DNA of 64,000 nt from contig LCKO01000006.1 in the NCBI GenBank assembly GCA_001001485.1, positions 4,350 to 68,349 on the forward strand, given 5' to 3'. Source of the DNA: Candidatus Collierbacteria bacterium GW2011_GWB2_45_17. GTDB lineage: Bacteria > Patescibacteriota > Microgenomatia > UBA1400 > MFAQ01. Each line of letters opens with the position of its first letter. The first letter of the stretch is position 1. The translations under genes were made by a program, and so were the position numbers. Below are positions 3,609 to 23,647 of this stretch, piece by piece. Under the pieces are notes generated by a model that searched no databases, was not told where the DNA came from, and saw only the letters and a program-made list of their open reading frames with translations.

Positions 3609-3649
3609 TGATGATTGATTTCGGTTATTGTTTGGTATTAAATGGAGGT

Positions 3650-3988: not shown

Positions 3989-4015
3989 ATATACCTTTTA
4001 TGGTATATTGTCTTT

Positions 4016-4303
4016 ATGAGAAACCTAAAGACAATTAATGAGTTCACCAAGGAGCTGCTTAAAGATCCCGAAGTCAAGGCTGAGTATGATAAACTCGAGC
4101 CTGAGTATCAACTCATGTGCGCAATTATTGAGGCAAGAAGAGAAAAAAGACTTAGTCAGAAGCAACTAGCCGTAAAGGCCAAGACAACCCAAGCCAAGAT
4201 TTCTATGATTGAAGCCGGTTTGTCAAACCCGACGATTCAGACAGTAAATTCAATTGCTATGGCTTTTGGGAAGAAATTGAGGATCGAATTTGTGTCTCGT
4301 TGA
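4016..4303 (+). CDS. XRE-family helix-turn-helix antitoxin (HigA-like)
   Basis: 95 aa. The HTH 'LSQKQLAVKAKTTQAKISMIEAG' starts 28 nt downstream of the toxin stop. Confidence 0.7.
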   Translation: MRNLKTINEFTKELLKDPEVKAEYDKLEPEYQLMCAIIEARREKRLSQKQLAVKAKTTQAKISMIEAGLSNPTIQTVNSIAMAFGKKLRIEFVSR

Positions 4304-4383
4304 GTAGAAGGAACACTTTCCAAAACGGAAATAGTTGGAGTAGAAAGTAATGTGCAATAATTGCACATTGTTCCAAAATGGAA

Positions 4384-8288: not shown

Positions 8289-9775
8289 TGGTTTAGCTTG
8301 AAAATATAACTTGTGAAGACGCCGGAAGAGACAGTGGCGATGGGAGTATTCATATCGGAGTAGGAAATGACTTCGGAGATGACCACGCGGTAGAGTAGCT
8401 TTTCACTGGTAAATTCATCCGGATAGATCCAGCCGAAATACTCATCGGCAGAACTACTACTTGGGTGATTGCCGTAGGTTTGGAAGAGATAGCGCCAGCC
8501 ACCATATGGGTGGTATGGCCGAGGATCTTTTCCTACGGTCTCCAAACTAAAGGGGCTATTCCCTATTAGAGGCATAATTTGATTGATTAAATTCCTGCGA
8601 GTAGTAAGACCATATTGGGACTGGGTGGTGGTGAAGATGGTGACAGAGTTTATGGCGATATAGATGGCAAAGAGTGGTGTAAGAAGTTTCCAGCTTACTT
8701 TCTCCAAGAAAAGTCCCAGGACTATCGTAGTCATAATAAAGAAGCCTAGCAGATAGTATTCACAGCCAATGGAGGGGTAGAGGAGATAGAAAAGAAGAAT
8801 GGAAACGATCATCCAAGCGAGAATTTGAAACTTTCTTTCTTTTATCGCCTTCCGGAAAAACCAAACAAAAATCAGGACAACGAAGAGACTGATAAGGAAA
8901 ACTGGTCGAGTCATATCGCCATGGGCTCCTAGACCGTGTTCTTCTTGAATATTGGTGTAGGGCTTGAGGTAAAGTGCTCGACTGATCGAGAACCAAACAT
9001 TGTTTAGGTGATAGATAAGCTGGTCGAGACCAAAGACCGAACCCGAGGTTTTGGGGCTCAGGACATACCGGATGGGACCCAGGAGATCGTCAAAGTTGTG
9101 ATTGATATCGAAGACGATGAGGGGTGAGACGACGGCGAGATAGGAAAAGATAGAGATCATCCAGATAGAAAGAGAAATTTTCTTAATATTTTTCAGAACA
9201 AGGAAAATAACGAGTGGCCAGTAGACCATGAGTGATAGATGAAGGTGGAGGCCGGAAGCCATGATAATAGTGGAGAGAATAAACCAGCGAGTGTCCTTCT
9301 CTGCCCGGTACAAAGAATAAAGAAGCCAAATGGTGACAAAGGCAATGGGAGTGGGATTCCAAAAACGATGATCAAAATAAATTAGTAGCGCCGAAAAGCC
9401 ATAAAGAATAGCGGAAATCAAACCAACTTTTTTGGAAAATATCCTGGAGGCTACGAAATAGAGACTTATGGTAGTGATAATGCCAAAGAAAGAGGAGAAG
9501 TAGGCTAGGACAGAGAGATCACCGTTGCCGATCCAAAATAAAAGTGCGTTGAGATAGGTAAAGGCCGGACCCAGGTAAAAGCCAAAGTTACTGGCGCTCA
9601 CGCCGATCCAGATGGGATGAAAATCTTTGACTTGAGACCAGGCTAAGAGGGCTTGATACTCCTCATCAAAGTTAAAAGAAAACCACTCGGCTGATTTCCA
9701 AAATCGGAGAACTATCAGAAAAATAAACAGAAGAATCGGAATTATTTTGGTCGGAGTAATCTTTAACTTGGCCAC
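8285..9775 (-). CDS. polytopic membrane protein, GT-C-fold glycosyltransferase-like
   Basis: 496 aa. Highly hydrophobic multi-TM protein with an acidic 'FNFDEEYQALLAW' first loop, in an operon of glycosyltransferases. Confidence 0.45.
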   Translation of the reverse strand: MAKLKITPTKIIPILLFIFLIVLRFWKSAEWFSFNFDEEYQALLAWSQVKDFHPIWIGVSASNFGFYLGPAFTYLNALLFWIGNGDLSVLAYFSSFFGIITTISLYFVASRIFSKKVGLISAILYGFSALLIYFDHRFWNPTPIAFVTIWLLYSLYRAEKDTRWFILSTIIMASGLHLHLSLMVYWPLVIFLVLKNIKKISLSIWMISIFSYLAVVSPLIVFDINHNFDDLLGPIRYVLSPKTSGSVFGLDQLIYHLNNVWFSISRALYLKPYTNIQEEHGLGAHGDMTRPVFLISLFVVLIFVWFFRKAIKERKFQILAWMIVSILLFYLLYPSIGCEYYLLGFFIMTTIVLGLFLEKVSWKLLTPLFAIYIAINSVTIFTTTQSQYGLTTRRNLINQIMPLIGNSPFSLETVGKDPRPYHPYGGWRYLFQTYGNHPSSSSADEYFGWIYPDEFTSEKLLYRVVISEVISYSDMNTPIATVSSGVFTSYIFKLNQ

Positions 9776-9790: not shown

Positions 9791-10924
9791 TCAGCCGATA
9801 AAGTAGCCACGGGTGAAGAAGATAATTGAAAGTATAGAAAAAACTATAGTGGAAAAATAATAAACGTATTTAGTAAATGGGTGCTGGCGCTCTAACCAGT
9901 AGGCCAAATACATAAAGACTGGAAACATGACAAGTGTGTATCGCGGAACACTGGCAAAAGTGCCGGAGAAGCTGGGAAGGAGATAGGAAAGTAAGACAAA
10001 TAGCCAATAGGAAAAGCGTATTTTTTTGAAGGAAAAGATTAAGACACCCAAGACTAGTGTGGCAGAGAGAAGTTCCAATACGACTGTAAAAAATAAGGGG
10101 TCCCAGTGATCGGTAAAAATAAGCATTTTGGCGTAGCGAAAAAAGACCTGATGAAGCAGAATTAGCTTATTGACCGTCCGGCCGGTAAAGTTTGTTTGAA
10201 TTGTGGCGAAAAACAAGGCGTCTCCCGTCTTGAGAAATTGGAAACGCATAAATGACAGAAGCCCTAATGGTGGAAGGGTCAACCAGATGGCAGATGGATT
10301 TAAACATTTCTTGATATCTTTTCCGTAATAAACCCAGAATTCGTAGATAAGAGCCGGCCAGAGAAAAATGCCGGTGATTTTGGTGGCAGACGCGATAGCA
10401 GCCGCTATACAAGCCAAGAGGAATTGATTGCGGCGAGCAAAGTAAAAGCTGAGGACCGCCAGAAGTAGAAAAAGAGATTCTGTGTATACAGAACCAAAAA
10501 AGAAAGCTGTGGGAAAAAGCAAAAGGAGATAGATGGTTGATTTGGCAATTTTGGATTTGAAATCCAGAGCGACTAGTTTATAAAGGAAATAGAGAGCCAA
10601 AATAATACAGAGATGAGAAATAATTAGTCCGGAGGCGAGATAGTTATCGAAAAAATTGAAAGTGCGAATGGTCCAGGGGTAGATAGGGAAGAATGCATAG
10701 TCCATGTCTGTCTTGTGTTGGTAGCCGTAACCAAACTCGGCCAAGTCCAGATAATGAAGCCCGTCGAAGTTGGACCACATGGAAAAAAGATTACTCGCTG
10801 AAGGTATCTCGGTGAGATTGGTGAATCTGGTGCGTGGGGTCAGAAGAAACATGGCCGGAAGGGCGATGAGAATAATCAGCAGTCTCCAACCGAGGACGAG
10901 TTTAAGGATTTCTTTGATTGTCAT
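9791..10924 (-). CDS. membrane mannosyltransferase-like protein (PIG-V/GT-C-like)
   Basis: 377 aa multi-TM. 'WSNFDGLHYLDLAEFGYGY' resembles the WDxxHYxxIAxxGY motif of PIG-V/GT76-type mannosyltransferases. Confidence 0.45.
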   Translation of the reverse strand: MTIKEILKLVLGWRLLIILIALPAMFLLTPRTRFTNLTEIPSASNLFSMWSNFDGLHYLDLAEFGYGYQHKTDMDYAFFPIYPWTIRTFNFFDNYLASGLIISHLCIILALYFLYKLVALDFKSKIAKSTIYLLLLFPTAFFFGSVYTESLFLLLAVLSFYFARRNQFLLACIAAAIASATKITGIFLWPALIYEFWVYYGKDIKKCLNPSAIWLTLPPLGLLSFMRFQFLKTGDALFFATIQTNFTGRTVNKLILLHQVFFRYAKMLIFTDHWDPLFFTVVLELLSATLVLGVLIFSFKKIRFSYWLFVLLSYLLPSFSGTFASVPRYTLVMFPVFMYLAYWLERQHPFTKYVYYFSTIVFSILSIIFFTRGYFIG

Positions 10925-10936
10925 TTAATTTATATA

Positions 10937-11018
10937 GATTGCTTCGTCGTTTCACTCCTCGCAATGACGGGTGGAGTGAGATTGCCACGTCGCGATTACA
11001 CTCTTCGCAATGACGTGG
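10937..11018. repeat. two tandem module A copies at the 3' end of the GT4 gene
   Basis: 'agattgcttcgtcgtttcactcctcgcaatgacgg' followed by 'gagattgccacgtcgcgattacactcttcgcaatgacgtgg'. Confidence 0.8.
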
Positions 11019-12027
11019 AAAGAATGTGTTGATAAACGGCGAGGGTGAGTTTGGCGGTTTTGGCCCAAGAAAAGTCATGGGAACGTTCTTTGGCAAGATT
11101 AATTTGTTTCAATTTGGCTTCGGGAGAAAGTTTTAAAGCTTTTTTGATAGCTTTTTCCATGGATTTTAATTTCCTCGGACTAAAGGTAATCGCCTCTTCA
11201 TGATATATTTCCGGAAGGCTAGATTTTTTGGAACTGGCTATCAAGCAACCGGCCGTCATGGCTTCCAGTAACGGCAAACCAAAACCCTCGTACAAGGACG
11301 GCTGAACATAAAGCGAGGCTAGGTGAAACATGGCGTTAAAATCTTCATCCGGGACGAAACCCGGGTAACTGATGTGGTTGTAGACTTGTAAACGAACCAA
11401 ATCGATTAATTCCGGGTGAACCGGTTTAATAATTTCTTGGAGCATACCCTTACCAACGATTACTAATGGTATTCCGAGTCGATCCGTAACTTCAGCTAGT
11501 GAGGGGAGATTTTTATTTGGATTTGGCCCAGCGGCAAGCGTGAGGATAAATTTATCGGGAAGATGATATTTTTCTTTGATTTCGGCAATCTTTGAAGAAG
11601 AGGGGGGCTTTTTGTAGATCTCTGCTACCGCCAATGGGGTAACAAAGATTTTTTCTGGGGAGATACGAAAATATTTTTCGATATCTTTTTTGGAGTTTTC
11701 GGAGTCGGTAATGATGGCTGAAACCGATCTCAGAGACCACCACTGACGTAATAGATTGAGAGTACCCTTGATACCCTTAGGATACCGGCTGGACATAACG
11801 AGGGGTGTCAGATCATGAATAGTGACGATGGTGGGTTTTTCCTTTTTTACCGGAAAGGTAGCGTAAAAAAGATCAAAGAAGGGGAAGTGAATAATATCCG
11901 GATTTTTATCCGTCAAATCTATATCAGGAAGTTTAGCTAATGCTCTGGATAGATTTTCGGAATAAACTCCAACTCCCCTACCAGCGGAATGATCGCCTCC
12001 ATTTAGAAATACTTTAATTTTTTCCAT
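10996..12027 (-). CDS. glycosyltransferase family 4 (GT-B, 'group 1')
   Basis: 'EGFGLPLLEAMTAGCLIASS' EX7E-type C-terminal domain. Its last 6 codons and stop lie inside a copy of repeat module A. Confidence 0.8.
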   Translation of the reverse strand: MEKIKVFLNGGDHSAGRGVGVYSENLSRALAKLPDIDLTDKNPDIIHFPFFDLFYATFPVKKEKPTIVTIHDLTPLVMSSRYPKGIKGTLNLLRQWWSLRSVSAIITDSENSKKDIEKYFRISPEKIFVTPLAVAEIYKKPPSSSKIAEIKEKYHLPDKFILTLAAGPNPNKNLPSLAEVTDRLGIPLVIVGKGMLQEIIKPVHPELIDLVRLQVYNHISYPGFVPDEDFNAMFHLASLYVQPSLYEGFGLPLLEAMTAGCLIASSKKSSLPEIYHEEAITFSPRKLKSMEKAIKKALKLSPEAKLKQINLAKERSHDFSWAKTAKLTLAVYQHILSTSLRRV

Positions 12028-12898
12028 AATCTTCGTCTTTGTAGAGTTCCCAGAGCTTCATATAGGAAAAGGCGTGATGAAAACCTGAGTAAAGAGAGAA
12101 TACAAACCCTGGAAAACCATCCATAAAACCACGATAGCGGATATACAGACTAAGGAAAGTACCTAAAGGTTTAAAGAATAAATAATTTAGGGTGTTGAAA
12201 AAATTGATTTTGACGCCATCTCTTTTATAGAAACCGGCTTGGAGACTGGAGTAACGATTCTCTCGGAGTAAGTAGCGAGAAAAATTGGGGGTGGCAAAGT
12301 GATCCAGGTCAGAACGTAACCAACCGACACTTCCTTTAACAATCATTTGCTCATGGACATCTTTGGCGGGAAGTTCGGCCTTACCACGTTGGAATAGTCT
12401 GATCACCGGATCCGGGTACTGTCCAGCGTTCTTTAAATATCGATTGAGAAAGAAATTTTTTCTGGGTAACCAGTAGGCGGCGGCCGGTTTGGTGAGACGA
12501 TACGGCTCAGGAAAAAAGGGGAGAAATTTGTTGATGGTTGATTTTAATGGTGAAAGCCAACTGTCGTAACCAAAGTAGTCGCCATCGAGAATACCGATAA
12601 TTTCCTTTTGCATTACCGGCGTTATTCGCTCGTCAGCATCTAGCTGAAGAATCCAGTCAGACTTGGCTTCGCGATTGGCAATGTCTTTTTGGATGTGGAA
12701 GACCGGATTGTTTTCTCTGAGTAGCACCTTGGCACCCAGCTTGCGGGCGATCTCAGCCGTCTTGTCCGTAGAATGGCCATCCACCACGATGATTTCATCT
12801 ACCCAGCCCTTGACCGAGTTTAAGCAGTCGGCGATACAGTCCTCGTTGTTATACGAGGCTAAAGTGACCGAGATAGTTTGACGTTTAGATTTTTTCAT
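12014..12898 (-). CDS. glycosyltransferase family 2
   Basis: 'ISVTLASYNNEDCIADCLNSV…DEIIVVDGHSTDKT' GT2 signature. Confidence 0.75.
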   Translation of the reverse strand: MKKSKRQTISVTLASYNNEDCIADCLNSVKGWVDEIIVVDGHSTDKTAEIARKLGAKVLLRENNPVFHIQKDIANREAKSDWILQLDADERITPVMQKEIIGILDGDYFGYDSWLSPLKSTINKFLPFFPEPYRLTKPAAAYWLPRKNFFLNRYLKNAGQYPDPVIRLFQRGKAELPAKDVHEQMIVKGSVGWLRSDLDHFATPNFSRYLLRENRYSSLQAGFYKRDGVKINFFNTLNYLFFKPLGTFLSLYIRYRGFMDGFPGFVFSLYSGFHHAFSYMKLWELYKDEDYGKN

Positions 12899-14580
12899 TT
12901 GGTGGAGAGGAATTTGAACATTATAGCCCCTGCCGGAGAAAGAACCGTGCCAATTACTTTGGTGTCATCTACTTTTTCCTCGGCGGTAATGAGAAGAGTG
13001 TTGGGTAACAGCTTGTCTTGTTCGTAATTGATAGTGCGGAATTCGTATTTACCCAGCTTGCGGCCGGTAGCAAAGCCGTAGTGATCCGGTTCAGACATGA
13101 CGATATCTCTCTGAAGATCTGCCGGAGGATATTTGGTGAAGAAGGCGATCAAGATATATGGCTGGTCGTAACGATCGGTGATAATAATATGATCATATTT
13201 GTTGTAGTTTTCTTTAGTGAAGGCAGCAACTTGATCAAAACCGTATTGCCAGGCGTAGGGTAGTTCCTTCGGGTAGTGGACATAGTACATATGAAGATAA
13301 CGGGCAAATGAATAAAAACTCAAAAAACCAAAAATACAAAAAATCAAAATTTTGTAGACGAATTTATATTTTTTAATTAATTCAAAAAACTCATAAGTCC
13401 CCAGGGCGGCGATGATCATGAGTGGGACAGACATGTTCTCGGCTCGGAGGGCATGGGGTGACTGGTAGGTAATAGAGGCGGCTAGGGGGGCAATCAGGAA
13501 CCAAGCCAGAACGACTTTCTTACCGTTGGAGTCGAGCATTATTAGAGAAAGTAGTCCTAGGGCGAAGAATGGGAGAAGGAAGAGAAGACTTTGCCCCGTT
13601 TCCGGAACTTTGCTTCTGGCTATAGCATCCCCATTGAGGAATAGAAAATCAGGAGAGTAATGAGAAAGATAGTTTTGGACGAATCTCATGGAGTAAGAGA
13701 GATAACGATTGTGAATTAATCTGACTTGTAAACTGCTTTTATCCTCATGCTCAAGACGGTAGTTAGTGGCTTGCCAGTCCGGACCGGAGTCGGCAAAGAT
13801 CGAGACGCCGGAAAAACGAGACTGACCCTCTTTGGAGAGAAGTTGGCTGGCGATGGGGAGGGAAAGAAGAAGGCCGAGGAGGGTGGCAATGATAATAGTT
13901 TTCAGTTTTGAGTTCTCAGATTTCAGGTTTCTGATGCCGGAGAATAATTCTTGACGGTAGATGAAGACGAGAGAGAGGGCAAGAAGAGGAGAAATTATTC
14001 TGGCCGAATGATAAGTGTAAAAGCTTAAGGCAAAAGAGGTAACGAATAGGTAAAAATATTTTTGATTTTCCAAACCTTTTAAGAAACCCCAGACACCAAG
14101 AAGGATGAGGAAAGTAGCGGCGTTGACTTCCCAGCCACCCCTGGAAAACTGGAGATGCCAGGGAGATAGGGCGAGAAAAAGAGCAGAGAGTAAGGGTAGG
14201 TGGCGTGAGATTGCCACGTCGCGTTCGCTCCTCGCAATGACGGGAGGGAAGAGAAGTTTGATAATCAGGTAGACGAGAAGGACGCTGGCGATACCAAGGA
14301 GGGCCGATGGCAAACGAACCGCCGTGACAGTCAAACCCAAGAATTTGACAAAGGGTAAAACCAAATAAAAATAAACCGGAAGTTTGTAATCGTCGAAGGA
14401 CCGGAAGACCAAGGGCCAGGCTATGGAGTGCTCGTCTTTACCCGTTTGGATCAATGACCAGGCGTTATAGCCGATGGCGGCTTCATCGGCATTCAAACCG
14501 GCAGGGAACTGATCGAGAGAGTACAGTCTGAGAACAGCGGCGAAAATGAGGATAGCGATAATTAAAAAATGTTTTTTCAC
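12895..14580 (-). CDS. ArnT/PMT-like GT-C glycosyltransferase (GT39/GT83-like), paralog 1 of a tandem array
   Basis: 561 aa. N-terminal TM helix, then the DE-containing loop 'GLNADEAAIGYNAWSL', then more than 10 TM helices. Repeat module A is inserted in frame ('VIARSERDVAISRH'). Confidence 0.7.
   Translation of the reverse strand: MKKHFLIIAILIFAAVLRLYSLDQFPAGLNADEAAIGYNAWSLIQTGKDEHSIAWPLVFRSFDDYKLPVYFYLVLPFVKFLGLTVTAVRLPSALLGIASVLLVYLIIKLLFPPVIARSERDVAISRHLPLLSALFLALSPWHLQFSRGGWEVNAATFLILLGVWGFLKGLENQKYFYLFVTSFALSFYTYHSARIISPLLALSLVFIYRQELFSGIRNLKSENSKLKTIIIATLLGLLLSLPIASQLLSKEGQSRFSGVSIFADSGPDWQATNYRLEHEDKSSLQVRLIHNRYLSYSMRFVQNYLSHYSPDFLFLNGDAIARSKVPETGQSLLFLLPFFALGLLSLIMLDSNGKKVVLAWFLIAPLAASITYQSPHALRAENMSVPLMIIAALGTYEFFELIKKYKFVYKILIFCIFGFLSFYSFARYLHMYYVHYPKELPYAWQYGFDQVAAFTKENYNKYDHIIITDRYDQPYILIAFFTKYPPADLQRDIVMSEPDHYGFATGRKLGKYEFRTINYEQDKLLPNTLLITAEEKVDDTKVIGTVLSPAGAIMFKFLSTK
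14205..14244. repeat. module A copy, in frame inside ArnT-like paralog 1
   Basis: 'gtgagattgccacgtcgcgttcgctcctcgcaatgacggg'. Confidence 0.85.
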
Positions 14581-16247
14581 TTGTCTTTGGTCTTTATTAT
14601 TCTTAAAGAAATGTCTCCATTGGGGAAAAGCACATCAACGTGTTTTTCTATCGTGGGTAGAGAGAAATCAAAGTTTTCCGGAAAGTTGCCTATGGTTCCC
14701 ACAAAGATAGTGCCAAACTGATTACTAACTTCACTCAGACCGGACTGGTGGAACTCGGCCAGACCAACTTTGGCAACATTGCCAACGTCGTAACCGCCAG
14801 ACTGAAATTCATTGATCTTTTGATAAGTAGCCGGATCAAAACGGGAGTAAAAAAGATAGAAGATATATGGTTGACCCAAAACGTCGGTCATGACAACTTT
14901 GTCCTGCGGATACTGATTGATAAACTGCATGGCTTCTTTGTAGCCATATTGAAATTCTTTGGCATAAATGAAGTTTGAGTGAACAAAGAGAAGATCAAGA
15001 AAATAGACAAAGAAAACTATCGAGAGAAGGGCGACGAAAAAGAAAAGTGGCTTTATTTTCGTCAGCGCATAATAGGCTCCCAGTCCGCAAATAACTGCGA
15101 GGGGAATGGTGAGGAAAAGAGCTCTAACCGTCGAGTACTCGGAAAGGGTGAGAGATCCCGGAAGTGGGGCGAGCAGTAGTAAGCCGGCAATCAGGAGAGA
15201 GTTTTTTAGATTTGGGGATCTAACTAGAAAGATAACTCCTAAAACAAACCAAATAAAATCGAAGGGTAGAAGCATCCCCATACCGGGAACGTGTCCCCTT
15301 TCAACTATTCCTGTGCCTTCGTAAAATAGAACCCCCGGACTAAGGTGCTTCAGATACCGACTGGCAATCAGCCTAGTTGTCAGTTGTGGTTGGTTGTGAA
15401 AAAGACTGAGACTTAAGGAGTTGTTACTATCCGTGGCTCGGAGCTGTTCGCTGATGCCGGGATGATAGCCAAAGATGCTGAGTCGCTTCAGGCGATTGGC
15501 ACTTTCGCCGGACATGGTAGACAGTGTAAGCGAAAGGAAGAAGGCCAAGACAAAGGCGACAACGGCTTTATTTTTTTTGACGGAAAAATAGAGTTTAAAT
15601 TGATCTCTAAACTCTGACCAATAAAGTAGGACAGGAAGAACCAAAACCAGAGGAGTAAAAAGTTTGGCTGCTTGGTAGGTAAGGAAAGTCAGAAGAGCCA
15701 AGATGAGGGAGAAAGTCAGGAATTTGCCGGAACGAATAAAGACGAGAAGAAAATAAAGAGCGAAGAGAAGTAAGGTGACGAAGACATTGGTTTCCCAAGC
15801 CCCACGACTGAAGTGAATGTGCCAGGGCATGATGGCTAGAGAGAGGGCGGCGTAAGATCCCAGTTCACAGTTCTCGGTTGTCAGTTCTTGGTTTTTTGGT
15901 TTTGATTTTTTGGAAAATAGTTCATTGGTCAAAAGAAAGATGCCGTAAATGGCGAGGATGCCGGCGAGAGCGCTGGGGAGTCGGACGGCAAATTCGGTGA
16001 GTCCCAGAACAGCGATGGGTGGAATGGCCAGATAGACGTAAAGTCCCGGTTTAAAATCTCCGAAGCTTTTGAAAATGATCGGAAGAAACTTTCCGAATTC
16101 ATCTCGACCGGTTTTGATGATTGAATAGGCGTTGTAACCCAGAGCCGCCTCATCCCAAGTTAAGGCATTGGGTAATGATCCGAGCTGATAAAGTCTGAGG
16201 ACAGTTCCCAAAATAAGAGCGAGTATCAATAGCCAGTACTTCTTCAT
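14577..16247 (-). CDS. ArnT/PMT-like GT-C glycosyltransferase, paralog 2
   Basis: 556 aa. 'LTWDEAALGYNAYSI' loop. An AGAACT-type module is inserted in frame ('SKPKNQELTTENCELGS'). Confidence 0.7.
   Translation of the reverse strand: MKKYWLLILALILGTVLRLYQLGSLPNALTWDEAALGYNAYSIIKTGRDEFGKFLPIIFKSFGDFKPGLYVYLAIPPIAVLGLTEFAVRLPSALAGILAIYGIFLLTNELFSKKSKPKNQELTTENCELGSYAALSLAIMPWHIHFSRGAWETNVFVTLLLFALYFLLVFIRSGKFLTFSLILALLTFLTYQAAKLFTPLVLVLPVLLYWSEFRDQFKLYFSVKKNKAVVAFVLAFFLSLTLSTMSGESANRLKRLSIFGYHPGISEQLRATDSNNSLSLSLFHNQPQLTTRLIASRYLKHLSPGVLFYEGTGIVERGHVPGMGMLLPFDFIWFVLGVIFLVRSPNLKNSLLIAGLLLLAPLPGSLTLSEYSTVRALFLTIPLAVICGLGAYYALTKIKPLFFFVALLSIVFFVYFLDLLFVHSNFIYAKEFQYGYKEAMQFINQYPQDKVVMTDVLGQPYIFYLFYSRFDPATYQKINEFQSGGYDVGNVAKVGLAEFHQSGLSEVSNQFGTIFVGTIGNFPENFDFSLPTIEKHVDVLFPNGDISLRIIKTKDK
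15861..15915. repeat. module B-like oligo-repeat (cagttctc variants), in frame inside ArnT-like paralog 2
   Basis: 'cagttcacagttctcggttgtcagttcttggttttttggttttgattttttgg'. Confidence 0.55.
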
Positions 16248-17992
16248 GGAAGTTCGATTATTTTAAAAGCGGTTGACCCATCCAGAAAATTGATGGTTTT
16301 TAAAACGTTGGCTCCTGTCGGAAGATGATCCGGCGAAGCAACCATCAAACTGTTGGATGTCGGAATCTCTCCGCCACTTTCCAGAGGTAACGAGGTGATC
16401 TTGCCGACCGGAATTTGCCAGTCGTTAACGAAGTAGACGTTATCGATTTTGTCCGTCCAAAACCAGTCCGATTTTTCAAACCGAATATTGTCCCCGCCCG
16501 GTTGTAATTTTTCAGGGGCAAGTTGGTTATAAAAAGCATAGAAAATATGGGCTTCACCATAGCGTTTGGAGATAAAGACTTTGGAAAAGTTTTTCTGAGT
16601 ATTAATAAAATCGAAGACTTGCCGGTAACCATATTGCCAAGACTCCGAGTAGGTCTTGGAGTAGTTAGTGAAGTAGTCGTCTGAATAAATGACGAAAACG
16701 ATAATAGCCACTGTCATCACTAAAGCAATTAAAAATGTTTTGGCAAAAGCCGAGAGACGATCCGCAAGAAAAAATAAACCTAAAGCGGCAATAATTACGG
16801 TAGCAGGAATCATGGGGTTTGGACGTAGAGCTTGTGGGGGATCGACTGTTAGGGCAGAAGCAACAGGAGAGAGCAAGAGCCAAGAAAGAATGAATTGATT
16901 CGATTTTTCACTTGGATTTTTAATTAAGTAAAATATCCCAATTAAAAATAAAACCATAATGGGAAAGCCAAGAAGGTTTCTGCCGGGGATAGCGAACTGG
17001 AACTGGGCTCCCCTGCTCTGATTGAAGAAATCCGGAGCGAAGTAACCAAAATAATTATTGATGAAAGTCTGGGCAAAATACAAAGGTCGGTTATAGACAA
17101 ATTTGGCGATGATGGGAGGTAAGCCACTCTCCAGTCTTTTCTGTCCTAGGGTGTAGGCAGTTGATTCGGTGATGATATTTAATTTGCCATAACGGGCAGT
17201 GCCGGTACCAGTAAAGATCTGATAAGCCACAATGGTGGCGAAAAAGGCAAGAATTAATATTGCGATCACCATCTTGATCCTGGATTGCCACGTCGCAAAC
17301 GCTCCTCGCAATGACCGCCAGTAAATAATGATAAAGGCCAAAATAATTGTGGGGACAAAAATTCTAGAAGTATTGTAGGTATGAAGAGATAAGCCAAAAA
17401 GGAAAGCAGAAGCTATTAGTGCGAAGTTGTTGGTTCGAGGTTCGTTGATAGAGCGTATTAGAAAGTAGGCTGCGAAAATTATTAGAGTTAGTGAAAGATT
17501 GGCCTCCAATGCCGGGCGGGAAATAAAGAAGTGCCAGGGCATAAAGGCAAGGAAGAAAGCGGAGATAGTTGGCAGATTACAGATGTCAGATGACAGTTTA
17601 GGTAATTTGTTTATGGACTTGTTGTTATTTCTGAGAACTGAGAACTTAGAACTGAGAACTAATTGATTTGCGAGAAGGTAGATACCTGGAATGGCGAGGG
17701 TGCCGGCAAGGGCGGAGATAAAGCGGATTGAAAAAACCGAAAGACCAAAAGCCCAAACAGGGAAGACCGTCAGATATATATAGAGGGGCAGTTTGTAATC
17801 GCCAAAAGCTCTGAAAATTAGGGGTAGTCTAGTTCCCCATTCGTCTTTTCCGGTAAGAAGAATTGAGTAGGCGTTATAACCATGACTGATTTCATCCCAG
17901 TTAGGGGCGACCGGAAAACGATCTAACCAGAAGAATCTGACTAAACCACCCAACAAAGTTAAAATTAAAAGAATCAGAAGTTGTTTTTTCAT
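16244..17992 (-). CDS. ArnT/PMT-like GT-C glycosyltransferase, paralog 3
   Basis: 582 aa. 'NWDEISHGYNAYSI' loop. Carries in-frame copies of modules A ('SLRGAFATWQS'), B and C. Confidence 0.7.
   Translation of the reverse strand: MKKQLLILLILTLLGGLVRFFWLDRFPVAPNWDEISHGYNAYSILLTGKDEWGTRLPLIFRAFGDYKLPLYIYLTVFPVWAFGLSVFSIRFISALAGTLAIPGIYLLANQLVLSSKFSVLRNNNKSINKLPKLSSDICNLPTISAFFLAFMPWHFFISRPALEANLSLTLIIFAAYFLIRSINEPRTNNFALIASAFLFGLSLHTYNTSRIFVPTIILAFIIIYWRSLRGAFATWQSRIKMVIAILILAFFATIVAYQIFTGTGTARYGKLNIITESTAYTLGQKRLESGLPPIIAKFVYNRPLYFAQTFINNYFGYFAPDFFNQSRGAQFQFAIPGRNLLGFPIMVLFLIGIFYLIKNPSEKSNQFILSWLLLSPVASALTVDPPQALRPNPMIPATVIIAALGLFFLADRLSAFAKTFLIALVMTVAIIVFVIYSDDYFTNYSKTYSESWQYGYRQVFDFINTQKNFSKVFISKRYGEAHIFYAFYNQLAPEKLQPGGDNIRFEKSDWFWTDKIDNVYFVNDWQIPVGKITSLPLESGGEIPTSNSLMVASPDHLPTGANVLKTINFLDGSTAFKIIELP
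17282..17317. repeat. module A copy, in frame inside ArnT-like paralog 3
   Basis: 'ggattgccacgtcgcaaacgctcctcgcaatgaccg'. Confidence 0.85.
17573..17665. repeat. composite of module C ('agattacagatgtcagatgacag') and module B ('tctgagaactgagaacttagaactgagaact'), in frame inside paralog 3
   Basis: Direct sequence match to the copies at 48585-48611 and to the module B blocks. Confidence 0.75.
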
Positions 17993-19653
17993 TGCTTAAA
18001 GTCAAAGACTTCCATAATTATCTCACCTGTCGGGGTAGTAACTTGATGCAGAGTGTGTCTTTCACTTGGTAGCAGGGAATTCCCCTGCCAAACATAAAGA
18101 GTTTCAAGATTTTTATCTTCCGGCCAATCTAATTTTTCGAATGAATATTTTCCCAATCTATATTTACCCATTTGATCCAAATAATCGACCGGATTTTTTT
18201 GCATTTCCTTTTCCCAGTCTGCAGAAGCTGCTTGAAAGACTGGTGGAGGTGTCTTAAGGTAAAAAGCAATGAACGATTGCCCTTGTGTCCCCTTATCGAC
18301 CATAACAGTATCGTAATTCCTCTGAATCTTTGAAATAGCATTCACGGTATCTCTCCAGCCGTAAGACAAGGCTTTGGGGTAGGTAACAACCGAGTTGAAA
18401 AAGTAATCCTCGAAATAGAATCCGGTCAGGATAATGGCCAGTCCGATAAAAAGTCCCAGGATTTTTTTAGAGTACTTATTTTTTATTTCCAGGAATCTAA
18501 CAAAACCAAAAGCGGCGATTATTTCCCATAGACACAAAAAGGAACCGGCACGGTTTGGGCGGTAACCTTCTTTAGTAAGCGCTGCCGGGATGGCGGCAAG
18601 GAGGAGCCAAATAAGTAGAGGTCTGGCATCGTAGTCTTCATCTTTTATCTTCTTAAGAAGAAGGAAAAGACCAAAAAGAACGAGAGGTAACATCCAGAAA
18701 AGAAGGAGTCCCCTACCTGGAATAACCGAGTAGGTTATTTCCCGACCACCTTCGGTAAACCAAAATGGTAAAGAGAAATAACTAAGATAATTCTCTCCGA
18801 ACCGAGAGATGACGGTAAATATTTTTCGGTGAAAGAGACGTGGTATTTTTGGGTTTATCTTTGCAAGTGGGGAGTAGAAAGATTGATCATCGATTTGTTT
18901 TAAATTGACAGTATCGAGTTTAGATACCAGAAGATCCCCTCCCCTTTTGGCGGAGTTGCCAAAAACTGAGTCTATAACTAGAGGACTTAAAAGAATAATA
19001 ATTGTCAGAAGGGCAGGCAGTAGTGATTTTAAACCTTTTGAAAAAATCTGCCGGCGATAAAGGAATAACAGCGAAAGGGCAAAGAGAGGAATATAGATTT
19101 TAGCCGAGTGATAGGCATACAAACTGAGACCCCAAAGAATGGCGGTGTAAATAAATTGTCGATGGTCTTTGAGTCCTCTCAAATATAAATAAAGTCCCAA
19201 GGGAAACAAAAAGGAGGTGAGGTTCACTTCCAAGGCAGTTCTTGAAAACTGGATATGCCAGGGAGAGAGGGCGAGAAAGATAGCACTATAGAGTGGAAGG
19301 TGTTTATAGTTAGGGAATATTTTGCCGGTGAGTAAATAAATCGCTAAGATGGCCAAGACCCCAAAGATGGCACTAGGGAGGCGCGCGGCAAATTCATTTA
19401 GCCCGAAGATTGCAACACTGGGAATCATCAAATAGGTCTGGAGGGGCGCTTTGTAGTCCAGAAATGACTTGAAAGAAGAAATCGGCCAACCCAATCCCCA
19501 CTCGTCCTTACCTGTTTGCAGAAGACTGTAGGCGCTATACGCCTGACTAGCTTCGTCTGGAGAAAAGCCGGCGGGTATGCGACCGAGGTAGGTGAAGCGT
19601 AGGAAAAGCCCCAGGATTAGGATTAAGGCAAGGAGGACTTTCCCGATTTTCAT
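17989..19653 (-). CDS. ArnT/PMT-like GT-C glycosyltransferase, paralog 4
   Basis: 554 aa. 'FSPDEASQAYSAYSL' loop. Confidence 0.7.
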   Translation of the reverse strand: MKIGKVLLALILILGLFLRFTYLGRIPAGFSPDEASQAYSAYSLLQTGKDEWGLGWPISSFKSFLDYKAPLQTYLMIPSVAIFGLNEFAARLPSAIFGVLAILAIYLLTGKIFPNYKHLPLYSAIFLALSPWHIQFSRTALEVNLTSFLFPLGLYLYLRGLKDHRQFIYTAILWGLSLYAYHSAKIYIPLFALSLLFLYRRQIFSKGLKSLLPALLTIIILLSPLVIDSVFGNSAKRGGDLLVSKLDTVNLKQIDDQSFYSPLAKINPKIPRLFHRKIFTVISRFGENYLSYFSLPFWFTEGGREITYSVIPGRGLLLFWMLPLVLFGLFLLLKKIKDEDYDARPLLIWLLLAAIPAALTKEGYRPNRAGSFLCLWEIIAAFGFVRFLEIKNKYSKKILGLFIGLAIILTGFYFEDYFFNSVVTYPKALSYGWRDTVNAISKIQRNYDTVMVDKGTQGQSFIAFYLKTPPPVFQAASADWEKEMQKNPVDYLDQMGKYRLGKYSFEKLDWPEDKNLETLYVWQGNSLLPSERHTLHQVTTPTGEIIMEVFDFKQ

Positions 19654-19654
19654 A

Positions 19655-21319
19655 CTACTTACTATTATATGGCTTGGTACCGGTCAAAATGTAGAAAAGA
19701 GGTTGACCGAAGATATTTTTTTGAGTGGCAAGAACTTTGGTGTTCTCCAAAGGGTTTTTACTCCAGTCCCAATCCCCTATCCCTTCGCGTCCTTGGACGG
19801 CGAGATAAAGATCATTGTTCGTCAGGAGGACTTTGAGCTCATCCAGATTGGGTGACTCTCCAAAATAGTATTTGTCCGCAAATTGGAACCCGTGGAAAGA
19901 TCTGGCTTGATAAGTATCAACCACATCAGTGACAAAGTTTTTTTGGAATTCCTTAGGTGAGTACCTGGTATAGAAAAGAAACATGAGAAGGGATGGCTGA
20001 TGGGTATTGTTGATGTAGACCTTGTCGTATTGAGGCAGTAGAGGTTTTAATTCAGTAAAAATATTTTTGAAACCATATTCCCAAAGAGAGGCAGACTCGT
20101 AACGGTAATGAGCAGAATAACGGTGAAAGTAACCGGCAAAAGAAACGGCGAGAATTATTAAGAAGATGAAGATCGTTGATTTGATTAATTTACTGGAGAA
20201 GAAACTTAGAAGATAAGTACCGCCGAGAGAGGAAATTAATATTAATGGAGGCAGCATTAGAAAAAGACGGGTGGCATGAGTGCCACCATCTACGGTGAGA
20301 CAGCTAGGTATTGGGGAAAGAAGAAGCCATAATAACAGTAGGCGGTTATTCTTTTCGGTAATATTTTTAAGCATGAAAAATAAACCAGCAAGAAATAGTG
20401 GAAGTAAGATTGTAAGAAGCTCACCGACCATTGAAACTGAGTGTCGGAATTGAGGATCGCCTTTTATAAAAAGAAACTGTGGGGAGAAAGCGGTGAGGTA
20501 GTTATTCATGAACGCCGAAGAAATGGCGAGATATTTGTTGTGAAAAAGGGTTTCAACAATTGATTTACCAACCCAGGGATCTGTTCTTTGGAGGATAACC
20601 GTTTCAATAATTTTTGAGTCACTAAAAATACTCACTAAATTGAAACGACCACCGGCTTGGCCAAAAAATACGTTGTAAATTACCGGAAAGAAGATGATTA
20701 AAGGGAGAATAAGACGGATCCAATTTGTTTTAAGATTAAGTCTTGGTTTAAAAACAAAAAGAAGAGAAAGAACAAATAAAGGGGTAAAGACCATGGCAGT
20801 CGAATAAGTATAGAAAGTGAGGACAAAAGGAATTAGACCGGCAAAATATTTTTCTTTCAAGAAGAGATGGGTACCGAGCATGACCAGGAAAATTAAGGGA
20901 ACGACCTCAAAAGCGGCTCTGGAAAAATGAATGTGCCAGGGAGTAAAAGCAAGTAATAAAGCCGATAAAAGAGCAGTTCTTTTGTTTTTAAAAATTGTTA
21001 AGCCGAGAAGGTAAATTAAATAAATGCTGGCGGAACCGAGCAGAGCTACGGGAAGTCGTACAGCCAGATCGGTGGGACCAAATATCCCTACAAAGGGAGC
21101 GGTGATGTACATGAGAAGCGGGGCGCGCCACTCTGAAAGGCTTTGGATATAGGTAGGTAAGAGGTGCCCCATGTAATCGCGACCGGTAGTGATGAGAGAC
21201 CAAGCCTGATAACCAACGTCTATTTCATCTCCAAAAAGAGCAATAGGAAGACTAGTGAGACTCTGGAGCCGAAAAAAAGCCCCGGCTGCAATAATGATCG
21301 CCAGAAAAGCTTCTATCAT
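19655..21319 (-). CDS. ArnT/PMT-like GT-C glycosyltransferase, paralog 5
   Basis: 554 aa. 'LFGDEIDVGYQAWSL' loop. Confidence 0.7.
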   Translation of the reverse strand: MIEAFLAIIIAAGAFFRLQSLTSLPIALFGDEIDVGYQAWSLITTGRDYMGHLLPTYIQSLSEWRAPLLMYITAPFVGIFGPTDLAVRLPVALLGSASIYLIYLLGLTIFKNKRTALLSALLLAFTPWHIHFSRAAFEVVPLIFLVMLGTHLFLKEKYFAGLIPFVLTFYTYSTAMVFTPLFVLSLLFVFKPRLNLKTNWIRLILPLIIFFPVIYNVFFGQAGGRFNLVSIFSDSKIIETVILQRTDPWVGKSIVETLFHNKYLAISSAFMNNYLTAFSPQFLFIKGDPQFRHSVSMVGELLTILLPLFLAGLFFMLKNITEKNNRLLLLWLLLSPIPSCLTVDGGTHATRLFLMLPPLILISSLGGTYLLSFFSSKLIKSTIFIFLIILAVSFAGYFHRYSAHYRYESASLWEYGFKNIFTELKPLLPQYDKVYINNTHQPSLLMFLFYTRYSPKEFQKNFVTDVVDTYQARSFHGFQFADKYYFGESPNLDELKVLLTNNDLYLAVQGREGIGDWDWSKNPLENTKVLATQKNIFGQPLFYILTGTKPYNSK

Positions 21320-21348: not shown

Positions 21349-22491
21349 CTAAATAAAGGGGATTTTTAATGTCAGGAATAAATTTAGAAAGTGAAAAAGA
21401 CTCAGAGTAACGTAACCGACCCACCAAGCCGGATTCTCTGCAAAAGTAAGTAGTCCAAAAATAAGAGCCGGGGCGAGGTGCCTCTCATGCACTCTCGTCT
21501 GCAGAAAGAAAACGGCTAGGGCCCAGATGAATAAAGAGTTCAGGAAAGTTCTTGGGTATTGGTTCTTGGATACTCTGATAAGTAGATACACAAGTAGAGA
21601 TATAAGAAGGACGATGGAGATTGTTCGCACAGAGAGTAGTCCCAGGTGAACGGAGTCTTCGGCTCCAGCCGGATATAAAAGATACCAAAAATTCCAGGCC
21701 GCATCGGAAACGCCGGTAGAGGACCCACTGAGAGTGGCAAAATAATTTTTAAGCGCGGCAAAGGGGCTCAAGCCGAAGGGCAAGTAACTGGCAAAGAAAA
21801 CAAGGATCGAGTAGAAGGCTCCTGCCAGAAGTTGTCGAACAGGAAGATTCTTTAGCCAAAGAAAGAGATAAAAGGGCGCGAACCAGAGAGCTGTTTGTTT
21901 CGTCAGAGTGGCAAAGATAAAAAATATTAATGATGAGGATTTAGCCCGATCCGTTTTACCGAGAAACATGAGGTAGAGAGAAAGTAAAAGAAAAAAGTTA
22001 GTTATCGGTTCGATTTGACCCCAGACCGAACTGAGGTATATAACCGCCGGATTAAATAAATAGAGAGATGTTAGTAAGTATGGATGTTTAATTTTTCTGG
22101 CTTGGAAAAACTTGAAAATTAGAAGACCGGTACCCAGATCTGCGAGGATTCCGGGTAACTTGAGAAAACCGTAGCTCATATTTTCGTGATTAAACAAAGG
22201 AATGATAAATGACGGAAAAAAAGAAAAAGAATTATTTAAGAAAGTAAATAAATTGCGTAGAAGGGAAAGAAATAGATTGGAAACGGCGAAAAGGTAAATT
22301 GCTAATGGTGGATAATTGGCATCGTTAAAGCCGGTGAAGTGAGTTGAATAAAGTCCGATCGTGTTCGTCAGAGCGGCATTTCCCCAGACCAAGTGATTTT
22401 TGACATCTCCCGAGTACTGAGGAAATAGAAATATTAAACGTAGCAAAAAAGCTACTACCAAGATCACGTAAATTGACTTAATCTTTTTCAT
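21349..22491 (-). CDS. polytopic membrane protein, GT-C-like (DUF2029/GT87-like)
   Basis: 380 aa, multi-TM. 'SGDVKNHLVWGNAAL' early loop. Confidence 0.4.
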   Translation of the reverse strand: MKKIKSIYVILVVAFLLRLIFLFPQYSGDVKNHLVWGNAALTNTIGLYSTHFTGFNDANYPPLAIYLFAVSNLFLSLLRNLFTFLNNSFSFFPSFIIPLFNHENMSYGFLKLPGILADLGTGLLIFKFFQARKIKHPYLLTSLYLFNPAVIYLSSVWGQIEPITNFFLLLSLYLMFLGKTDRAKSSSLIFFIFATLTKQTALWFAPFYLFLWLKNLPVRQLLAGAFYSILVFFASYLPFGLSPFAALKNYFATLSGSSTGVSDAAWNFWYLLYPAGAEDSVHLGLLSVRTISIVLLISLLVYLLIRVSKNQYPRTFLNSLFIWALAVFFLQTRVHERHLAPALIFGLLTFAENPAWWVGYVTLSLFHFLNLFLTLKIPFI

Positions 22492-23647
22492 AATCCACCA
22501 ATAACCAAATCAATACAGCTATTATTCCAGCTCTGGATATTTGAACTATTTCTAAAAAGTAAGAAGACTTCGTCAGAGATACCGGTAAAGCAAGTTTTGA
22601 ATGAATAAACATCTGCAAGTGTAAGGAAGGATCAAAGGAAAACAGGATAATTAACCAACAGATTATTAAAGTGAAATAAAAAAAGTAGTCAGCCTTAGAA
22701 ATAGAATAGATGACGAGCCAAGGCATGATCCATACTAGCCACTGAGGGTGGAAATGAGAAAAAGCTAGAGAGGCCAGAAGGGCAGAACCAATCGCAGTTG
22801 GTAGAGATAGCCTCTTCTTCCATACCAGGATTAGAATTAAGGTGTAGAAGATGAAAAAGAGAGGAATGTCATGACCGGAAGCGATGGAGATGGAGGCGTA
22901 GGTACTTTTACCTATTTGTTCGGCGAAGAGGGCGTAGTAACGATAGGCGGCAGATCCAAGATAGGGAAGAATTCCAAGTAGATAAACTCCAAGGCCGGTA
23001 ACAGCTAATAGCAGAGATTGAAGGAGCTTTTTGTGAGTAGCCAAATAATGGAGAGCCAGAATGGGGATGAGGATCAATCCCGCTGGCTTGATGAGAGCCG
23101 AAAGGGCAATCAGAAGCACCGAGAGAAAGGGTTTGCCTTTCTGGTAATAGTAGAGACCAAGGGTGATAAAGAGAGCAATGATGATATCTACTTGACCGAC
23201 CATTGAACTAACATAAATTGCCAGAGGGTTGAAAGTCCACAAAAGCATGGCAAGTTTTTTATGATTCTGTTTTTCAAAAAATTTAGGGAGTAACCACAAA
23301 AAAGCTAGATCTGCCAAAATCATAGGGAGTTTGTATAGAAGGAGAAGAACGTTGAAGTTGGGACTTGAAGGTAACCAGTCTTGATTGGCGAAAATTTGGC
23401 CGGTTTCTTTTACCACTGCTTGAAACGGCAAATAGATGAGGGAGGGAATTAGATAAGCTAAGGGTTGGTAGTTGAAGACTACGTTGGTATTTGGAGTGTC
23501 GTAGAAAGTAAATAACTTTCCCTCACCAATGATCAGTTTTCCGGCTATTGAAAAAGCCCCGATATCCGACTGATAAGTAAAAATTGAGACAACCACCCTA
23601 ATTAAAAAAGCAAAACAAATCAGATATTTAAACCATGAACTATTCAT
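22478..23647 (-). CDS. polytopic membrane protein, GT-C-like
   Basis: 389 aa, multi-TM. 14-nt overlap with the next gene. Confidence 0.4.
   Translation of the reverse strand: MNSSWFKYLICFAFLIRVVVSIFTYQSDIGAFSIAGKLIIGEGKLFTFYDTPNTNVVFNYQPLAYLIPSLIYLPFQAVVKETGQIFANQDWLPSSPNFNVLLLLYKLPMILADLAFLWLLPKFFEKQNHKKLAMLLWTFNPLAIYVSSMVGQVDIIIALFITLGLYYYQKGKPFLSVLLIALSALIKPAGLILIPILALHYLATHKKLLQSLLLAVTGLGVYLLGILPYLGSAAYRYYALFAEQIGKSTYASISIASGHDIPLFFIFYTLILILVWKKRLSLPTAIGSALLASLAFSHFHPQWLVWIMPWLVIYSISKADYFFYFTLIICWLIILFSFDPSLHLQMFIHSKLALPVSLTKSSYFLEIVQISRAGIIAVLIWLLVDYEKD

Follow-up and report, generated by a model that had tools for sequence, protein, structure and literature searches.

Why should a bacterium keep five similar membrane glycosyltransferase genes head to tail, and what are the short inserts that interrupt some of them? 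Both questions are raised by an array of five genes, here called P1 to P5, in a 64,000-nt stretch of DNA (the window) from Candidatus Collierbacteria bacterium GW2011_GWB2_45_17, a groundwater genome of the candidate phyla radiation (CPR), Microgenomates. An earlier interpretation made from the letters of this DNA (the sequence-only reading) had seen a set of ArnT/PMT-like GT-C paralogs with donor or acceptor specificities of their own that act one after another, and whose loops are still being diversified by repeat modules. We find that the inserts are DNA repeats, and consider it probable that the array is an ancient GT-C operon in which selfish or neutral DNA repeats have landed in frame. 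The array itself is an ordinary, though unusually large, GT-C operon with enzymes of a known kind.

The five genes lie consecutively on the minus strand, in the operon order P5-P4-P3-P2-P1-GT2-GT4, and encode proteins of similar length (554-582 aa), as had been noted before. UX01_C0006G0023 of Candidatus Collierbacteria GW2011_GWB2_45 matches P1 at 100% identity. Pairwise identity, put at 30-40% by eye, was measured by BLASTP at 27.5-35% over nearly the full length. A five-way alignment contains 49 invariant columns, including D32, E33, P140, W141, H142, R147 and E151 (P1 numbering); D32 and E33 belong to the DE-loop strings that the sequence-only reading had quoted, and these strings were found. 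That reading had also placed an ATGA overlap at every join. We find ATGA at P4/P3, at P3/P2 and between P1 and the downstream GT2 gene, while the P2/P1 overlap is GTGA (P1 starts with GTG) and P5 and P4 do not overlap at all (TAG-T-ATG, one base between). Four-base start/stop overlaps at most junctions are compatible with the translational coupling of the array genes that had been proposed.

The so-called insertion modules are DNA repeats and not protein-level modules, because they are read in two frames, occur in intergenic DNA and recur in unrelated proteins; the earlier idea of loop diversification at the protein level falls with this observation. Two classes can be distinguished. Class 1 comprises hairpin elements with the sense strand GTCAT...AATC(T/C) and a variable apical stem, present in 10 copies in the window. 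Module A (GTCATTGCGAGG-centre-CGTGGCAATCTC) has little tendency to fold (z-score near 0). In a second type, GTCATTCC-loop-GGAATCC, the hairpin is perfect over 8 bp and z-scores are -3.6 to -4.2, and a third type opens with GTCATCC. The full module A pattern matches three times in the window (0.00 expected) and its right half-site eight times (0.27 expected). Class 2 consists of tandem 7-nt repeats of the CTGANNN type, to which both module B and module C of the sequence-only reading belong.

Both module A copies recognised earlier, one in P1 and one at 17282 in P3, were confirmed (Table 1), and their frames differ: the element reads VIARSERDVAIS in P1 and SLRGAFATWQS in P3. The P1 copy is missing from orthologs of 545-547 aa. 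Tandem Repeats Finder (TRF) reports period 7 and 5.0 copies for the second P1 insert (13897-13931), and period 7 twice in the P3 composite (17631-17660, 4.3 copies with 91% matches; 17573-17596). Composite and module A in P3 are both real; the composite had been counted twice, being itself the insert described after the helix called TM3, and a third insert, at 17417-17446, had been overlooked. Outside the array, a module A reaching from the spacer into the GT4 gene supplies the last six codons of that gene and its TAA stop (TSLRRV*, 10996-11014), and a second unit lies in the spacer itself (10935-10994). Further copies interrupt a membrane protein of 1107 aa (gene 33227-36550) and a GT-C-like protein of 593 aa.

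Table 1 Genes and repeat elements of the window. CL, cytoplasmic loop; TM, transmembrane; site 1 is CL1 and site 2 is CL3.
Feature	Position	Strand	Remarks
P1, GT-C paralog	12895-14580	-	561 aa, GTG start; module A insert and heptamer insert
P2, GT-C paralog	14577-16247	-	556 aa; one heptamer-like insert
P3, GT-C paralog	16244-17992	-	582 aa; three in-frame repeat inserts
P4, GT-C paralog	17989-19653	-	554 aa; site 1 empty here, filled in relatives
P5, GT-C paralog	19655-21319	-	554 aa; without repeat insert in this genome
Module A in P1, CL1 (site 1)	14207-14241	-	Sense GTCATTGCGAGGAGCGAACGCGACGTGGCAATCTC; aa 114-125
Degenerate heptamer tract (CTGANNN) in P1, CL3 (site 2)	13897-13938	-	Read GIRNLKSENSKLKT
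P2 site 1 insert SKKSKPKNQELTTENCELGS	15855-15914	-	Degenerate GAACTGN heptamers; repeat family D8
P3 site 1 composite	17573-17665	-	(GTTCTCA)x4, spacer, (CTGNCAT)x3
Short insert 'EPRTNN' in P3, CL2	17417-17446	-	Near-identical DNA at the homologous P4 position in L001
Module A in P3, CL3 (site 2)	17281-17315	-	Second reading frame
Two tandem module A units	10935-11014	-	Upstream unit ends the GT4 gene
Perfect 8-bp hairpin GTCATTCCCGACCTGATCGGGAATCC, then CTGAGAA heptamers	34268-34341	-	In frame between TM helices of the 1107-aa protein
Long-form module A with nested hairpin	34885-34949	-	1107-aa protein, after TM helix and KKIKRSKG; family D14
Two adjacent elements	38697-38803	-	In frame between TM helices of the 593-aa GT-C-like protein (37981-39762)
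Intergenic composite	48533-48613	-	CTGACAT heptamers, then module A (48533-48567 intergenic)
Intergenic module A variant	3568-3606	-	Different apical hairpin CCCGCTATGGCGGG
GT2 glycosyltransferase	12014-12898	-	Pfam Glycos_transf_2, 64 bits; start overlaps P1 stop
GT4 gene	10996-12027	-	Last six codons and stop from module A
GT-C-like genes with PMT_2 match	8285-9775, 9791-10924, 27635-29467, 37981-39762, 39792-41312, 42578-44065
GT87-like gene	22478-23647		Paralog at 21349-22491, mutual identity 32%
YfhO-like protein	25361-27631		Counted among the ~14 GT-C-like genes
GT2 fused to GtrA/DPMS TM domain	46405-47583	-	Glycos_transf_2, 75 bits; GtrA_DPMS_TM, 42 bits

Insertion polymorphism between relatives is clear, contrary to the uniformity that the sequence-only reading had named as refuting it. 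We compared four Collierbacteria loci, the window and three other assemblies (L001, L003 and L005), which also form the sample for the placement census below. At a given loop, orthologs with 75-88% identity differ in the element they carry or lack one altogether. Site 1 of P1 contains module A in the window, a GTCATTCC hairpin with heptamers in L001 and another hairpin (VIPAKAGIH) in L003 and L005, and is empty in L004. P4 has nothing at site 1 in the window, but L001, L003 and L005 each have a different element there; in P2 this site is heptamer-like in the window, empty in L001 and L005, and occupied by a different element in L003. P3 has heptamers at this site in the window, a long-form module A in L001 and, in L003, only the 15-nt CGTCAT-AAG-AATCTC, in which both element ends abut and which looks like a deletion remnant. 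The same polymorphism is seen at site 2 (CL3), at CL2 and at CL5, and nested (a hairpin inside module A) and tandem forms are also present. Among 120 P1 orthologs the modal form has 545-547 aa and a short loop; site 1 is extended in about 53 of them by a regex estimate that includes a few false calls, with many unrelated contents. Since insert content varies among orthologs as similar as these, insertion and turnover are recurrent. A metagenome scan for the empty P1 site 1 allele with a conserved downstream 27-mer returned two already-known contigs, both insert-bearing. An assembly artefact was rejected, as in-frame inserts occur at the same loci in independent NCBI, JGI and ENA assemblies.

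The proteins that receive these inserts are ArnT/PMT-like GT-C glycosyltransferases, an assignment of the sequence-only reading that Foldseek and fold comparison bear out, as does Pfam for P4 and P5; we place them in the PMT_2 type. In Pfam, P4 passes the cutoff for PMT_2 (PF13231) with 49.3 bits, and P5 passes those for PMT_2 (35.9 bits) and PMT (32.6 bits). Precomputed Pfam annotation gives PF13231 to most insert-free P1 orthologs and to the orthologs of P1-P5 in L126, a more distant Microgenomates genome. The AlphaFold2 model of P1 (pLDDT 88, with the inserted segments among its lower-confidence parts) displays a polytopic membrane fold with the N-terminal TM module common to ArnT, PglB, STT3 and PMT. 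Fold comparison ranked ArnT (5f15) highest at 21.5 with 396 residues aligned, followed by STT3B (21.2), Pmt4 (20.3), ALG12 (19.0), Pmt2 (18.7), AglB (18.2) and PglB (17.3), and the Foldseek result agrees. The family members proper are more distant. A sequence-profile search of the PDB gave no match at E<=1 and no ArnT model of NCBIfam matched, placing the proteins outside ArnT proper; Pfam scans of the five proteins found no MIR domain, placing them outside PMT proper. No arnABCDEF-type gene set was recognised in Pfam scans of the window.

In the P1 model, TM1 (residues 2-19) is followed by a long first external loop, in which the DE motif opens a helix at 31-46. After a juxtamembrane helix at 68-81 the chain crosses the membrane in about ten more helices and ends in an α/β domain (448-561) that is extracytoplasmic. 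Each paralog is predicted to have an intracellular N-terminus and about 11 TM helices. GT-C enzymes have a cytoplasmic N-terminus and an external DE loop, and their short loops then alternate between the two faces. With loops assigned on this premise in the insert-free L126 orthologs, lysine and arginine make up 59 of 203 residues in cytoplasmic loops against 11 of 181 in external ones, a positive-inside pattern. D32-E33 does not vary among the five paralogs or among 70 P1 orthologs and is putatively catalytic. The active site faces outward and is formed by the first external loop, with the invariant Asp-Glu, and the PWH...FSR...E loop.

According to the model, the four insertion sites of the five paralogs are the cytoplasmic loops CL1, CL2, CL3 and CL5, far from the outward active site. 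The loop that the sequence-only reading had placed after TM3 is indeed cytoplasmic; the helix before it is TM2, since the helix at 68-81 is juxtamembrane. Because the inserts are predicted on the membrane face opposite the DE-loop active site, an insert-driven change of donor or acceptor specificity appears unlikely.

Placement follows a set of rules. Across the four loci, 27 of the 35 hairpin elements lie in coding sequences (CDS), in GT-C, GT2 and GT4 proteins and in membrane proteins of unassigned family, and all 27 follow directly on a hydrophobic helix. Every one of the 35 copies is in sense orientation (p ~3e-11 if orientation were random). The frames of the CDS copies are likewise restricted: 15 are of the SLRG type (basic), 10 of the VIA/VIP type (neutral) and two of the HSR type, and the acidic HCEE reading of module A never occurs among them. 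A pyrimidine precedes GTCAT in 15 of 17 cases counted by eye. The distant loci L126-L128 contain no element copy. We read this as frequent insertion, with selection keeping those peptides that are tolerated where a TM helix ends on the cytoplasmic side; a genuine target preference could contribute.

How old is the array? L001, L003 and L005 have all five genes, with the GT2 and GT4 genes behind them as in the window. L126 and L127 (Woesebacteria) each have six tandem paralog genes in the same order, and in L128 (Wildermuthbacteria) only the P2 and P1 orthologs are adjacent. Each window paralog has its own best match in L126 and L127, at 49-65% identity versus about 30% to any other paralog (P5, for instance, 61% in L126 and 56% in L127). 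Identical residues between paralogs share a codon in only 30-42% of cases. One-to-one orthology and low codon sharing together indicate that the duplications predate the Microgenomates radiation, without ongoing homogenisation. The paralogs are ancient and individually conserved and form the core of a Microgenomates operon that is itself conserved; the array is not diversifying by recent duplication or conversion. The individual conservation of five genes argues for five non-redundant activities, and it is reasonable to suppose that the enzymes may have distinct specificities and act sequentially.

Recombination has touched the array, within orthologs. Relative to L134 (Ga0209542_10074288), a segment of about 260 nt in P1 (13849-14110, including site 2) is wholly different, between flanks that are 96.8% and 99.7% identical. 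The replacing segment is nearest to P1 orthologs of other lineages and not to the paralogs, which indicates allelic recombination rather than inter-paralog conversion. A test for recombination or gene conversion between paralogs, suggested with the sequence-only reading, yielded no inter-paralog conversion, synonymous sites being saturated; together with the replaced P1 segment, which is not paralog-like, this led us to reject gene conversion between paralogs. Separately, P1 and P4 share a 64-nt block (SPWH.QFSR; 14122-14185 and 19222-19285) that is 83% identical and begins the stretch just after site 1. In other paralog pairs even the best 20-codon windows stay at 0.63-0.72, well under this block, which may be a micro-conversion or merely a strongly conserved motif.

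Module A is not confined to Collierbacteria. The exact pattern GTCATTGCGAGGAGC-N4-GCGACGTGGCAATC occurs in at least 120 stretches of species-representative genomes (L006-L125, the GTDB species genomes with module A), from Bacteroidota, Chloroflexota, Alpha-, Gamma- and Deltaproteobacteria, Spirochaetota, Clostridia, Actinobacteria, Nitrospirae, Armatimonadota, Cloacimonadota and Patescibacteria. Across many phyla its 29 specified bases are unchanged, in a core of about 33 nt. In other phyla, module A is commonly followed by a shorter inverted partner 10-40 nt on, both orientations occur, and short tandem repeats sometimes adjoin. The arms ATTGCGAG / GTGGCAAT enclose centres of 82 different sequences in 198 copies. 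GAGC-GNNA-GCGAC is the most frequent, and the remainder are mostly hairpins whose sequences are unrelated. Watson-Crick stems of 4 bp or more are found in 55% of centres versus 10% of shuffles, and none of 200 shuffle replicates reaches the observed mean. The structure accordingly keeps a conserved base, with covariation in its apical stem. An inverted module A pair lies in frame in the histidyl-tRNA synthetase (HisRS) of a Micavibrio metagenome-assembled genome (MAG), an alphaproteobacterium (L014, 3940-5295), in the context ...GLLRDFITRND-VIARSVSDVAIQ..., and a Bacteroidales MAG has several copies, likewise in frame, in a membrane protein of 939 aa.

We also observed that CAZUFH010000001.1 (L095), labelled 'uncultured Pseudomonadales', encodes a clear ortholog of the 1107-aa protein (1494-4838), with different hairpin elements at the same two sites; it is likely that CPR DNA was here wrongly binned with a Pseudomonadales MAG. 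Module A is present in only 4 of 2.9 million viral contigs, and a mainly phage-borne element was rejected on this count. Rfam at gathering threshold gave no family in the window or in 15 loci of other phyla, and an E-value search with a Mucilaginibacter inverted pair gave only chance hairpin-like microRNA matches far under threshold; a riboswitch, a ribozyme and a known small RNA were rejected on these results. Literature searches by element sequence, encoded peptide and topic retrieved no description of the elements or of the array. It is possible, though on balance doubtful, that the family represents an undescribed pan-bacterial class of structured hairpins with the base GTCATTGCGAG...GTGGCAATC and its fixed mismatches, a covarying apical stem and frequent 7-nt repeats, that its spread may depend on single-stranded DNA, and that it colonises coding sequences of Collierbacteria in sense only, at cytoplasmic ends of TM helices.

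Several observations weigh against an ancient operon colonised by selfish or neutral repeats. P1-P3 stay at 17-22 bits for PMT_2 (P3 at 18.3), under the cutoff of 26.1, and no NCBIfam model fits any paralog, the only sub-cutoff signal being Agl23 at 28-37 bits versus a cutoff of 126. The PMT_2 misses coincide with the insert-bearing paralogs. Pfam scans of almost all window ORFs of at least 150 aa revealed no transposase-like or mobilising gene. Repeated hits on the same loops could mean targeted insertion or a selected function. Only one of three antisense frames has a stop, so that stops alone leave the strict sense orientation unexplained; this orientation could instead point to a role at the RNA level, and with nearly all genes on one strand, orientation relative to replication and to transcription is inseparable. 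The hairpins might then act on RNA processing, stability or ribosome pausing in the long operon, with protein insertion as a tolerated side effect. Such a role would fit the 35 sense copies out of 35, the conserved stem base with compensatory changes in the apical stem, the classic centre with its GNNA loop, and the position of all CDS copies directly after TM-coding segments. Yet Rfam has no match, other phyla show both orientations as inverted pairs, orthologs without elements exist, module A folds weakly, and the orientation is confounded with the one-strand gene layout and the G/C disparity of Collierbacteria (PMC7143001). We therefore regard an RNA-level function as unlikely.

The recurrence of the same four loops in different paralogs and lineages, together with the frame bias toward basic or neutral peptides, would also be expected of selected cytoplasmic peptide modules, for instance docking sites for GT2/GT4 partners or regulators, that adaptively diversify the five enzymes. 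We judge this quite improbable, given that the same DNA yields unrelated peptides in two frames, that content varies among 75-88% identical orthologs of which many have no insert, that the same elements occur in intergenic DNA, in the GT4 tail and in an alphaproteobacterial HisRS, and that model confidence is comparatively low in the inserted segments. Glycosyltransferases of Neisseria, Haemophilus and Campylobacter are known to undergo phase variation driven by repeats, and the 7-nt tracts, whose unit is not a multiple of three and which lie inside glycosyltransferase genes, might be contingency loci at which slippage shifts the frame and switches surface glycans. It is highly improbable that they are: the tracts are short and degenerate (no more than 4-5 units, matching at 78-91%, and in the array never more than two perfect units side by side), none of the five genes is disrupted in the window or across the four Collierbacteria loci, and relatives differ by replacement of whole elements, not by unit number. 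A young, dynamic family kept similar or reshuffled by gene conversion could account for the 64-nt P1/P4 block and for the replaced 260-nt P1 segment between strains otherwise 97-99.7% identical, but is hardly credible in view of paralogs only 27.5-35% identical with saturated synonymous sites, of one-to-one orthology across Microgenomates, and of the affinity of the replaced segment to P1 orthologs from other lineages.

On the preferred account, an ancient operon that receives selfish or neutral repeats, each paralog would transfer a sugar from a polyprenyl-phosphate carrier to an extracytoplasmic acceptor, which may be a surface protein or a glycopolymer of the wall. GT2 enzymes of the surrounding gene island, such as the GT2-GtrA fusion (Table 1), would synthesise the sugar on its carrier, each paralog would have its own linkage or acceptor specificity, and the four-base start/stop overlaps would keep their synthesis coupled. 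Hairpin elements and 7-nt repeats would land repeatedly in frame in genes and survive only where the peptide is tolerated, immediately behind a TM helix in cytoplasmic loops, and chiefly in the two frames that yield neutral or basic peptides. The inserts would turn over quickly by replacement, nesting and internal deletion, as selfish or neutral DNA and not as adaptive tuning of specificity.

Both components of this account have relatives among known systems. Among the bacterial GT-C enzymes of the ArnT (GT83), PMT_2 and GT39-like kind, ArnT has 13 helices; the array proteins are only about 10% identical to it and count about 11. Lipid A synthesis is not expected in these bacteria. With PMT (GT39) the array proteins share an invariant Asp-Glu motif in loop 1, but their C-terminal domain is a small α/β fold and no MIR domain was found with Pfam. 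Precedent for tandem GT-C paralogs in one operon is given by embCAB of mycobacteria, three arabinosyltransferase paralogs of about 1,100 aa each with large carbohydrate-binding domains, whereas here five or six paralogs have about 550 aa. In three-component glycosylation a GT2 synthase of the CsbB/GtrB type cooperates with a flippase and a GT-C enzyme such as YfhO/GtrC (PMC8035078): a polyprenyl-phosphate-sugar is made in the cytoplasm, flipped, and used for transfer on the outside. The GT2-GtrA fusion, the GT2 genes, the YfhO-like protein and the GT-C proteins of the island fit this scheme, with far more GT-C genes than usual.

In behaviour the elements match Rickettsia palindromic elements (RPEs), which the summary in PMC10969869 of Ogata et al. 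2000 presents as short palindromic DNA repeats inserted in frame in unrelated Rickettsia genes. The Collierbacteria elements likewise enter unrelated genes in frame with tolerated peptides. RPEs measure about 150 bp (described families about 100-150 bp), compared with 25-65 nt for the elements found here, which differ further in their CPR host, in their restriction to cytoplasmic loops beside TM helices, in the strict sense orientation and in the presence of module A in many phyla. RPE peptides may include similar 'VIPWLDHGI'-type hairpins, which is a lead only. Repetitive extragenic palindromic (REP) sequences and their paired form, REPINs, are similar as imperfect palindromes of 25-40 nt in many copies (here 10 in the window, 35 in four loci), and the inverted partner of module A in other phyla recalls REPINs. 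REPs are extragenic and species-specific, whereas here 27 of 35 copies lie inside genes and 29 specified bases recur across phyla; no gene for a REP-associated tyrosine transposase (RAYT) was seen in Pfam scans of the 64-kb window, the rest of the genome not having been searched. The tandem 7-nt units of the ACTGNNN/CTGANNN type resemble the cyanobacterial short tandemly repeated repetitive (STRR) heptanucleotides, reportedly described by Mazel et al. in 1990, but occur in a different phylum, as short tracts inside coding sequence and often adjoining hairpin elements.

In-frame colonisation of genes by small palindromic repeats is thus not confined to Rickettsia. The core of about 33 nt is nearly unchanged from Bacteroidota to Chloroflexota to Patescibacteria. 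If the proposed hairpin class is real, it would generally give rise to loop insertions in membrane proteins, and also in certain soluble proteins such as HisRS. The locus is also a natural experiment on which positions of polytopic proteins tolerate insertions of 10-35 residues, namely the starts of cytoplasmic loops, in basic or neutral frames. For annotation, the inserts drop real GT-C proteins under Pfam thresholds, and pipelines then label them hypothetical. CPR surfaces mediate host attachment and are essentially uncharacterised. Five or six distinct GT-C transferases in an island of about 14 such genes suggest an elaborate, extracellularly assembled envelope glycan in these ultrasmall bacteria, and one-to-one orthology across Microgenomates provides a defined target set for expression and glycan analysis.

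The array sits inside a cell-envelope glycosylation island of about 40 kb. As judged from the ORF list and Pfam scans, the minus strand holds nearly all genes from 1.3 to 44.8 kb, with about 14 GT-C-like genes in 45 kb (Table 1), numerous GT2 and GT4 genes and one Polysacc_synt flippase. The GT2 gene next to P1 is syntenic with the array in every relative examined, and the GT2-GtrA fusion is a candidate synthase of the polyprenyl-phosphate-sugar donor for the GT-C enzymes. Further along, Pfam identifies dTDP-rhamnose genes (an rmlA/B fusion, rmlC and rmlD), which we count, with the GT2-GtrA fusion, the other GT2 enzymes, the YfhO-like protein and the flippase, as donor supply of the island. 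GC skew on the plus strand is positive over nearly all 64 kb, so that the coding strand is C-rich; together with the minus-strand genes this fits the unusual strand-wide G/C disparity published for Collierbacteria and relatives (PMC7143001). The window has no tRNA genes, and tRNA-linked integration was rejected. One AbiEii-type toxin gene and two DUF3800 genes are dispersed within and near the island (395-1288, 5464-6186 and 59206-59841); one DUF3800 gene lies between GT2 genes, a synteny kept in L001.

The window holds further repeats of other kinds. A small gene for a 23S rRNA-intervening-sequence (four-helix-bundle) protein (PF05635, 46010-46355) is bracketed by inverted arms of 44 nt (45926-45969 and 46363-46406) that are 82% complementary and consist of AAGAACTC octamers. 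Another octamer tract lies at 47830-47867, and the plus-strand trmD gene (47881-48525), which encodes an essential tRNA methyltransferase, contains a perfect (AAGAACTC)x4.5 tract in frame at 48095-48130, encoding ...KELKNSRTQELKT...; slippage would change the reading frame, since three does not divide the unit length. Finally, two perfectly complementary 23-nt sequences at 58049-58071 and 59033-59055, each palindromic (CTGCAAGGCC/GGCCTTGCAG), flank a gene (57830-58981) with a weak PEGA-domain match and with 24-nt and 12-nt tandem repeats at 58083-58138 and 58461-58494.

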